The translations under genes and the position numbers were made by a program. Source: a virus. Taken from it: a stretch of DNA of 16,360 nt. The notes under the pieces were generated by a model, which was not told the origin of the DNA, did not search any database, and was given only the letters and a program-made list of their open reading frames with translations. Shown here piece by piece: positions 6,950 through 7,383 of the stretch (positions are counted from its first letter, which is position 1; each line of letters begins with the position of its first letter). The stretch lies in the UHGV virus genome UHGV-0072940; one strand, written 5' to 3'.

Positions 6950-7333
6950 ATGACACGCAGAACTCAGTTCAAAGGCAATTCACGTTCTCGTCGTCGTGAG
7001 CGTTTAAAGGCAAAGGCATTAGCTAACGGCGTACTGGCCCGCGAAGAAGCAATAAGTTCAGAAGTATTACACCGCCCTACTCTAAGCAGAGCGCAGATTC
7101 AGGCTAAAGGTACTCACGAAACGCCTGAGCGCATAGAAGACGCTAAGCCAATTAAGTTCATGGCACAGGACGTGATCTGGCAACAGAAAGAATACAGACG
7201 CAATCTGGAGCGAGCGGCCATTGTGTACGCGAATGAGTTTGGACATAAGCAACCAGAAACTGGTGTATGTCTTCCAAACGTAGCCATTTACGCGGCAGGC
7301 TACCGGAAATCAAAACAACTGACGGCGAGGTGA
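6950..7333 (+). CDS. N: N-type transcription antitermination protein
   Basis: 127 aa with an N-terminal arginine-rich motif (MTRRTQFKGNSRSRRRERLKAKA). Sits between PL/nutL and the early-left genes. AGGAGG RBS 5 nt upstream. Confidence 0.75.
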   Translation: MTRRTQFKGNSRSRRRERLKAKALANGVLAREEAISSEVLHRPTLSRAQIQAKGTHETPERIEDAKPIKFMAQDVIWQQKEYRRNLERAAIVYANEFGHKQPETGVCLPNVAIYAAGYRKSKQLTAR

Positions 7334-7383
7334 CTTGTGTTGGTCGCCAGAAAATGAAATTAGGCAGCAAACCACTTATTTGA
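7330..7383 (+). other. out-of-frame segment encoding a lambda-N-like C-terminus (VTCVGRQKMKLGSKPLI)
   Basis: In the frame that begins inside the last codons of N, the sequence encodes VTCVGRQKMKLGSKPLI followed by a stop. This closely resembles the lambda N C-terminus (ITCSGRQKIKGKSIPLI, from memory). Confidence 0.5.

Follow-up and report, generated by a model that had tools for sequence, protein, structure and literature searches.

An out-of-frame phage-21-type N end behind a 933W-type N gene: a probable recombination scar of lambdoid mosaicism

Introduction

Modular evolution and the 'pervasive mosaicism' of lambdoid phages are well known. Here we consider one instance in a 16,360-nucleotide stretch of viral DNA (UHGV-0072940, the whole of which is called the window), where a gene for the antitermination protein N is followed, in another frame, by what reads as the end of a different N. 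Lambdoid mosaicism has been treated quantitatively, and phage Rad52-like recombinases can recombine short, diverged sequences efficiently (PMC3945230). The N protein of phage H-19B, with a length of 127 amino acids (aa), antiterminates both in vivo and in vitro (PMC3526286). Read-through at a distal terminator falls from 31.8% with wild-type H-19B N to 9.8%, 12.2% and 5.8% when residues 101–127, 106–127 and 111–127 are deleted, and is kept (24.3%) when residues 121–127 are removed; residues 101–120 are required at distal terminators (PMC3526286).

The locus shares with other lambdoid mosaic joints an abrupt switch from unrelated to near-identical sequence, flanking genes that have been spared and a short homology patch that phage recombinases could use. 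It differs from them in that the joint lies inside a former gene instead of between genes, leaving a recognisable out-of-frame protein tail, and in that the stop codon of the new gene falls within the microhomology of the joint. A sequence-only reading of the window had reported that the N open reading frame (ORF) ends at 7333 and that a lambda-N-like C-terminus with its stop is encoded in another frame from 7330, and these coordinates and their content are borne out. Of the two explanations which that reading left standing, a frameshift in N or a scar where a different N allele was joined onto a lambda-like backbone, the evidence favours the scar. Positions 7330..7383 (extending to 7394) are very probably a non-coding recombination scar at a mosaic joint and not the sign of a broken N.

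The end of N

The window corresponds to the immunity and early-left part of a 933W-like Shiga-toxin phage, in reversed orientation relative to the lambda map, and positions 6800–7900 are 99.3–99.7% identical to Stx1a/Stx2a phages, 933W, Min27 and vB_EcoP_24B. The gene and its C-terminal tail, here termed type-B, are placed as follows.

6950..7333, + strand: N antitermination gene of the 933W/H-19B type, intact (127 aa in the ORF list; arginine-rich motif 12-RSRRRER-18)
7268..7333, + strand: type-B C-terminal tail of N, CLPNVAIYAAGYRKSKQLTAR (residues 107–127), with its TGA stop (conserved behind at least six N bodies; N-frame synonymous substitutions)

The C-terminus of N reads ...AAGYRKSKQLTAR, with the TGA stop at 7331–7333. 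933W and mEp506 encode exactly this protein, and HK97 N departs from it at 3 residues. The Pfam family PF25694 (N_peptide) matches it with 57.5 bits against a cut-off of 27.9, residues 2–127 aligning to profile positions 6–100 of 100, while phage 21 N scores below the cut-off and its alignment reaches profile position 81 only. PHROG 271, 'anti-termination protein N-like', also matches (E = 3e-39). The motif 12-RSRRRER-18 is of the boxB-binding type and has the same sequence and numbering as in H-19B N (PMC3526286), so that RNA binding is predicted. Length, motif numbering and the residues mutated in the H-19B assays (R3, S11, R15 and R18) all agree with the assayed protein (PMC3526286).

The ...KQLTAR end is found in N of 933W, HK97, mEp506, HK620, HK140 and Lambda_ev058, with or without a second tail behind it, and in nearly all of the 127 tails listed from IMG/VR. 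Counts from that database are given throughout as samples and not as frequencies, being confined to the loci listed and including redundant prophages. The tail CLPNVA[IL]YAAGYRKSKQLTAR, ending in a stop, is borne by no fewer than six different N bodies among the 127 IMG/VR loci listed with tail DNA: those of the 933W type, the HK620/21-like type and the ev058 type, and those with ...TRKYEGST, ...VECGSC and ...EVEGGAV. The stops that follow it are independent of one another. In mEp506, the identical N protein ends AGG TAA and an unrelated gene follows; in HK620, N ends AGG TAA TTATGG; and in HK140 and Lambda_ev058, it ends AGA TGA TAA ahead of a sieB-like gene on the opposite strand. None of these four carries the out-of-frame tail.

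Substitutions in the tail point the same way. Across the last 24 N codons of 56 listed loci that do carry the out-of-frame tail (25 haplotypes), nearly all changes are silent in the N frame (AAC/AAT, CGG/AGG, TCA/TCC, CAA/CAG, ACG/ACA, GCG/GCA, AGG/AGA), the only others being I/L, one N-to-D and one R-to-K. Judged from this pattern, the N frame is under purifying selection right up to its stop. Since H-19B N deletions that begin at residue 101, 106 or 111 reduce distal read-through (PMC3526286), the type-B tail is, by analogy, the functional polymerase-side end of N in the 933W/H-19B class. The sequence shows a full-length N, and its agreement with the assayed H-19B protein leads us to predict that it is active, that is, that it antiterminates normally. 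The same arrangement behind N is present in plaque-forming or inducible phages, namely 933W, HK97, Min27, vB_EcoP_24B and P27.

These results bear directly on the idea of a frameshift, under which ...VTCVGRQKMKLGSKPLI would once have been the in-frame continuation of N, until an indel near 7300..7330 cut off the polymerase-binding end and left a defective protein. That the second tail stands in the −1 frame and begins exactly at the N stop suits this idea, as do the two codons before 7330 in that frame, which read G-E as in lambda PGERGITC. However, the G-E codons vary freely between copies (SK, GK, SE, SQ), being third-position changes of the N frame, and the ...KQLTAR end is unchanged in phages with no such tail behind it. 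The Pfam profile ends at residue 127, and the active H-19B N, in which residues 101–120 are needed, has 127 aa as well (PMC3526286). Moreover, none of the approximately 170 type-A tails inspected (the lambda/phage 21 form, described below; IMG/VR loci listed) sits in frame on a 933W-type body, and thus the homologues that would continue in frame through VTCVGRQK were not seen. A frameshifted pseudogene is therefore rejected, on the relic-free homologues, the selection in the N frame, the full Pfam match and the active H-19B protein, and we give it next to no credence. What the sequence-only reading had taken as the possible loss of an authentic C-terminus is the authentic, conserved end of the 933W/H-19B/HK97/HK620 class. 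The full-length homologues of the 127-aa ORF that it had named as the mark of an intact N with a downstream relic do exist in functional phages.

The origin of the out-of-frame tail

The tail behind N, which we call the relic, is the following feature.

7330..7383, + strand: last 17 codons and stop of a phage-21-type (type-A) N, in the −1 frame relative to N, non-coding here (DNA identity to N genes)

In the −1 frame, positions 7330..7380 read VTCVGRQKMKLGSKPLI and are followed by TGA at 7381–7383. Type-A tails, those of lambda and phage 21, have the form ...G[VI]TC[VS]GRQK[IM]K..S.PLI; lambda N itself ends ...ITCSGRQKIKGKSIPLI (in a longer stretch, ...ERGITCSGRQKIKGKSIPLI) before its stop. 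The likeness of the relic to this class consists of the sequence together with a stop in register, and the difference is that here it is DNA sequence only, cut off from any N body. Against the lambda N end, 11/17 residues and 31/54 bases agree. The match is far closer to the in-frame 3' end of HK542 N (17/17 residues, 54/54 bases) and to the end of N in DE3, which is lambda with the phage 21 immunity and reads the sequence in frame (16/17 residues, 53/54 bases). The reported likeness to lambda N thus stands as regards residues and stop, while the closest relative of the relic, as these alignments indicate, is a phage-21-type N allele rather than that of lambda.

Matches of the relic in tblastn fall on annotated N genes, and megablast against E. 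coli genomes gave partial matches that start exactly at 7330 on genes annotated 'antitermination protein N' (E = 3e-19). At this degree of sequence agreement, the resemblance to an N end is not due to chance. The relic has no start of its own and is joined in frame to no N body: no in-frame link to the arginine-rich motif, the NusA-binding region or the YY.KPRSEMG module was found. That module is missing, the relic keeping 17 of the approximately 27 codons of the conserved type-A module (YY[SR]KPRSEMGVTC...). Its frame stays open as far back as the ATG at 7267, but the part before 7330 (MSSKRSHLRGRLPEIKTTDGE) is simply the type-B tail read in the −1 frame, with no conservation. In comparison with N of H-19B, 933W and HK97 (127 aa), the protein in the window is of the same class; the relic is a property of the locus, absent from mEp506 in spite of an identical protein.

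The joint

The boundary between the two N ends is sharp, and its features are given below.

7330..7334, + strand: recombination joint with microhomology GTGAC, present both at the type-B N end (as AG GTGA C) and in the type-A codons GTG ACT; the N stop at 7331–7333 lies inside it
7382..7394, + strand: Shine-Dalgarno (SD) sequence GAGGTGA (7382–7388) and ATG (7392) of the next gene, forming the right end of the phage-21-like segment; the SD sequence overlaps the relic stop

To the left of 7330, identity to HK542 and DE3 is at background (approximately 8/30 bases); from 7330 rightward it is 53–54/54. In DE3, it continues past the relic through the SD sequence to the ATG at 7392 (GGTGAgATATG in the window, GGTGAtATATG in DE3) and ends at 7392–7394, beyond which the genes differ. 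Partial BLAST matches in 5426 complete E. coli genomes either start at query 46, that is 7330, where they represent true type-A ends, or end at query 49, that is 7333, where they represent relic-free type-B tails. Matches that span the joint occur in 644 of these genomes. Each side of the joint exists intact elsewhere, the type-B end without a relic in mEp506, HK620 and HK140, and the type-A end as the in-frame terminus of N in HK542, in DE3 and in many IMG/VR loci.

The TGA of N sits within GTG ACT, the Val-Thr codons of the former type-A gene. Type-B N genes ending AGG TGA C.. occur in unrelated contexts (AGGTGACGATCC...), and therefore both parents could have shared GTGAC. A microhomology-mediated, otherwise non-homologous crossover within these five bases would fit the joint, with no finer placement possible. 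A joint equally sharp was not found on the left side of N, where alignment of the leader to lambda, DE3, HK542 and HK620 gave patchy similarity and no clean boundary. In the leader, positions 6927–6941 (+ strand), just upstream of the N ribosome-binding site, hold CACACCACCAAAG in common with the lambda leader, the rest having diverged; the leaders of HK620, DE3 and HK542 retain only CAAAG of it.

The sharp boundary at 7330, the identity of the relic to type-A N and the existence of remnants of other lengths (see below) uphold the proposal of a scar joining a different N allele onto a lambda-like backbone, and suggest the following course. A complete N of the 933W/H-19B class, with its own tail and stop, would have replaced the N of a phage-21/lambda-type backbone. 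The right crossover would have fallen at the microhomology GTGAC, 51 bases short of where the resident N ended, and the last 17 codons of the resident gene, its stop and the overlapping ribosome-binding site of the next gene would have been left over. Being near-identical to functional type-A ends, the relic would then serve as a short homology patch for further exchange, which would explain why the same relic is found behind several N bodies and before many downstream genes.

The history may also be read the other way round, with 65 bases carrying the type-B tail inserted at G-V|T-C of a type-A N (ggtgt[65 nt]gacttgtg) and the relic as the displaced original end. The residues before the tail, QPETGV-C, do resemble SEMGV-TC of phage 21 and GERGI-TC of lambda, and the gap of 65 nt from ggtgt (7262–7266) to gacttg (7332–) equals 2 modulo 3, which gives the observed frame offset. 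The absence of any 933W-type body with an in-frame type-A tail, already described, speaks against this order of events. So does the occurrence of the type-B tail on unrelated, relic-free N bodies, where already its opening codons have diverged silently (tgt ctt cca vs tgc ctg cca). In addition, identity to type-A DNA is not regained leftward of the tail. An insertion is accordingly improbable, and replacement of a resident type-A N by a complete 933W-class gene is the history we prefer.

Other remnants and the exchange of alleles

Remnants of type-A N ends are also found behind other cassettes. They measure between 20 nt and more than 170 nt. Their left ends are not the same, while the end nearest to the following gene is retained in all classes. 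The shortest lies in the E. coli CE20 chromosome (NZ_CM188248.1, locus L275, 700–731) and consists of approximately 20 last bases of a phage-21-type N, the SD sequence and the ATG of an orf28-like gene; it is preceded by a complete N with a ..QRGKSIPAYYD tail and by a 45-aa gene, with IS1 just past ral. Other loci have longer remnants. In L079, where an HK620-type N is followed by one additional gene, 27 codons remain; in L134, L166 and others, which have an N with a third type of tail and then a 114-aa gene, 31 codons remain. L199 and L210 keep 40 codons, and L246, L168, L159, L044 and L017 keep 45–66. In L017 (2337–3152, − strand), what remains of another N (at least 57 codons, ...GTREPPSLMWLKDRHNLYYRKPRSEMGVTCSGRQKQRGKSILAYYD and a stop) comes after an HK620-type N and an hkaQ-like gene, so that two N-derived sequences stand in tandem approximately 370 bases apart. 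This pattern is what would be expected if joints formed at arbitrary positions and survived only where the translation-initiation region of the next gene was spared.

The third kind of N tail, ...YYKD[SL]NPLGNKIHAVQ[KR]I[KR]LYSK[LP]PYG.., is carried by phage-21-like and HK620-like bodies, in the N genes that precede the remnants of 31–45 codons (L166, L246, L134 and L199 in IMG/VR). From these comparisons, a lambdoid N protein appears to pair one of several exchangeable bodies with one of at least two, and probably three, kinds of C-terminal tail.

The relic is found behind at least four N bodies and ahead of approximately eight different downstream genes, and its alleles (..KIKLGSKPLI, ..PLYEG, ..KLLYEG, ..QRGKSIPAYYD) mirror those of functional tails (IMG/VR loci listed). 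Because it is nearly identical to functional type-A ends, shares their alleles and occurs with several N bodies and downstream genes, it is presumably a partner in homologous recombination with type-A phages, to which it would offer a short patch of homology. Relic copies contain no indels and a few amino-acid replacements, each seen once (G to D, S to I, R to H); the functional copies compared with them, anchored independently, are equally uniform, with shared alleles and little variation.

Several points weigh against the scar as set out above. Neutral decay would eventually give indels and internal stops, and none was found in the approximately 42–56 relic copies examined. This uniformity fits selection and recent exchange alike, since functional copies are just as uniform and exchange would refresh the relics. 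Two loci, L129 and L031, have a different relic allele (VTCTVR.. / VSCTVH..) with the same joint position and a TAA stop. Its codons GTA ACC TGC ACT GTT CGC give VTCTVR, the reading continuing VTCTVRQK.. / VSCTVHQK.., and the allele was not found in a functional N among the loci fetched. A scar of this kind needs either a second event at an equivalent microhomology (GTAA) or gene conversion up to the heterology of the joint. Finally, the direction of the event, that is, which N was resident, is presumed.

Possible roles of the relic

As coding sequence, the relic is most likely without function, to judge from its conservation and context, and it is probably not translated. A separate small ORF, either from ATG 7267 (38 aa) or from ATG 7354 (9 aa), was considered and rejected, there being no SD sequence for it and ATG 7267 not being conserved in HK620-type tails. 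Within 7334–7390 no terminator-like site was found; a weak terminator-like match at 7252–7264, with a poor T-tail, lies inside N. A cis-acting RNA in the relic was rejected too, as no Rfam family reaches its gathering score there and the RNA fold (see below) does not beat shuffled sequence.

A more elaborate coding role would be recoding, in which some ribosomes (or RNA polymerases, by slippage) shift −1 in the last N codons, so that a hybrid N with a type-A tail is made and the relic is selected. Programmed −1 ribosomal frameshifting is exemplified by dnaX and the lambda G/GT tail chaperone. The locus resembles these in having overlapping −1 frames at the end of a gene, the second of which encodes a meaningful peptide, and differs in that it lacks a slippery heptamer, a stimulatory structure and any conservation around the shift site. 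In favour of recoding, the relic frame is open from 7267 to 7383, there is an A_AAA run at TCA AAA (7310–7315), and no relic copy has an indel or stop. If the relic were a second, conditionally used C-terminal cassette, with a low-level shift giving an N that carries most of the 933W-type tail plus a phage-21/lambda-type tail, this would explain the lack of such damage.

The details of the shift region argue otherwise. No X_XXY_YYZ heptamer occurs in the N frame of the last 24 N codons, and the A_AAA run, the only one, is lost through TCA to TCC in a large share of relic-bearing haplotypes. Just before 7330, the residues of the relic frame vary (GE, SK, GK, SE, SQ; V or M), a consequence of selection on the N frame, in which these are third-position changes. 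The RNA of 7295–7410 folds no better than shuffled sequences (minimum free energy −21.6 kcal/mol, mean of the shuffles −22.65, z = +0.35). The upstream ATG at 7267 is absent from HK620-type tails, remnants of the same N end lie elsewhere hundreds of bases from any N gene, and in mEp506 an identical N functions with neither a relic nor any second frame. Recoding in general is thus highly unlikely, and we hold the low-level, conditional form of it to be just as remote.

A non-coding role has more in its favour. The right end of the segment supplies the SD sequence and spacing for the 156-aa gene that follows, which is a sufficient reason for part of the relic to persist. We would expect, from this layout, that the part nearest to the next gene persists as the translation-initiation region of that gene and that the remainder is tolerated. 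Since L275 makes do with a 20-base remnant, the other 30-odd bases may be merely tolerated.

A stronger version holds that the whole segment of 54–65 bases is actively kept, both as the translation-initiation region of the next gene and as a shared homology patch for swaps of immunity and N modules. The overlap of the SD sequence with the relic stop and the SD-ATG layout shared with DE3 are consistent with this, as are the occurrence of the segment behind at least four N bodies and before approximately eight downstream genes with alleles that mirror functional tails, the retention of the gene-proximal end in every class of remnant, and the presence of the joint in 644/5426 complete E. coli genomes. 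Phage Rad52-like recombinases would be able to use such a patch, given their efficiency on short, diverged sequences (PMC3945230). However, approximately 20 nt and the SD sequence suffice in L275, leaving most of the 54 bases unneeded by the next gene; many type-B N genes have no relic at all; and uniformity is equally explained by recent common descent. Active retention of the whole segment is a tentative possibility, which we rate as unlikely overall and yet as more likely than a low-level −1 shift. A scar that is kept in part by the needs of the next gene, and otherwise tolerated, remains our preferred account.

Neighbouring features

N is the first gene of the leftward early operon and lies downstream of a promoter-like site (6672–6700), the putative pL, and of a nutL region placed by homology (6718–6784). 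The cI-like repressor is encoded at 4222–4929, and homologues of cIII, gam, bet and exo lie farther beyond N. The features of the operon on either side of N are as follows.

6718..6784, + strand: nutL region, loading site for the N encoded downstream (offset transfer from the feature 'nutL; putative' of the 933W record; sequence identical in HK97)
6770–6784, + strand: boxB-like hairpin GCGCTGACAAAGCGC at the end of the nutL region (read from the sequence)
7392..7862, + strand: downstream gene, 156 aa (933W L0079, HK97 gp45), from the ORF list, annotation and PHROG 1636 of unknown function; its translation-initiation region comes from the relic segment
7861..7878, + strand: tL1-like intrinsic terminator directly after the 156-aa ORF, a substrate for antitermination by N (stem-loop AGGCCGCATAGTCGGCCT, then a T-run)

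The HK97 record annotates a putative terminator farther downstream of gp45.

On the repressor side, three genes (4990–5331, + strand; 5348–5836; 5833–6453) lie between the cI-like repressor gene and a tIMM-like terminator (6460–6481), at a place where 933W has stk and small ORFs. The first encodes 113 aa with the Pfam domain DUF3024 and aligns along its whole length with PDC-S43, a candidate defence protein in PADLOC (E = 7e-42); the second and third match PHROGs of unknown function. The trio (4990–6453) may, on these matches, be a defence or exclusion cassette expressed from the prophage. The terminator-like site itself (6460–6481, + strand) is a strong hairpin with a T-run, follows the 206-aa ORF that ends the repressor-side operon, and occupies a tIMM-like position. 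The Rfam family Lambda_thermo, the cIII thermoregulator RNA, matches at 8931–8989 (+ strand) over the full model with 88.5 bits, and is the only Rfam family to reach its gathering score in the window.

Implications

In the full-text literature searched, we found no prior description of the remnant, although it may have been mentioned in the genome papers of 933W, HK97, HK620 or H-19B. All three elements are familiar, N as a 933W/H-19B-class protein, the relic as a piece of a lambda/21-class tail and the arrangement as ordinary lambdoid mosaicism, so that current understanding of N and of phage mosaicism is unchanged. With its base-resolved joint, five-base microhomology and length series of remnants, the locus is a clean and abundant example of module swapping among lambdoid phages.

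For annotation, the locus calls for caution, as a recognisable out-of-frame tail directly after a stop codon mimics a frameshifted pseudogene and is not one here. The N of this Stx-type prophage is intact and belongs to the experimentally characterised 933W/H-19B class, and therefore the early antitermination cascade that leads towards late-gene and Shiga-toxin expression should not be assumed to be defective.

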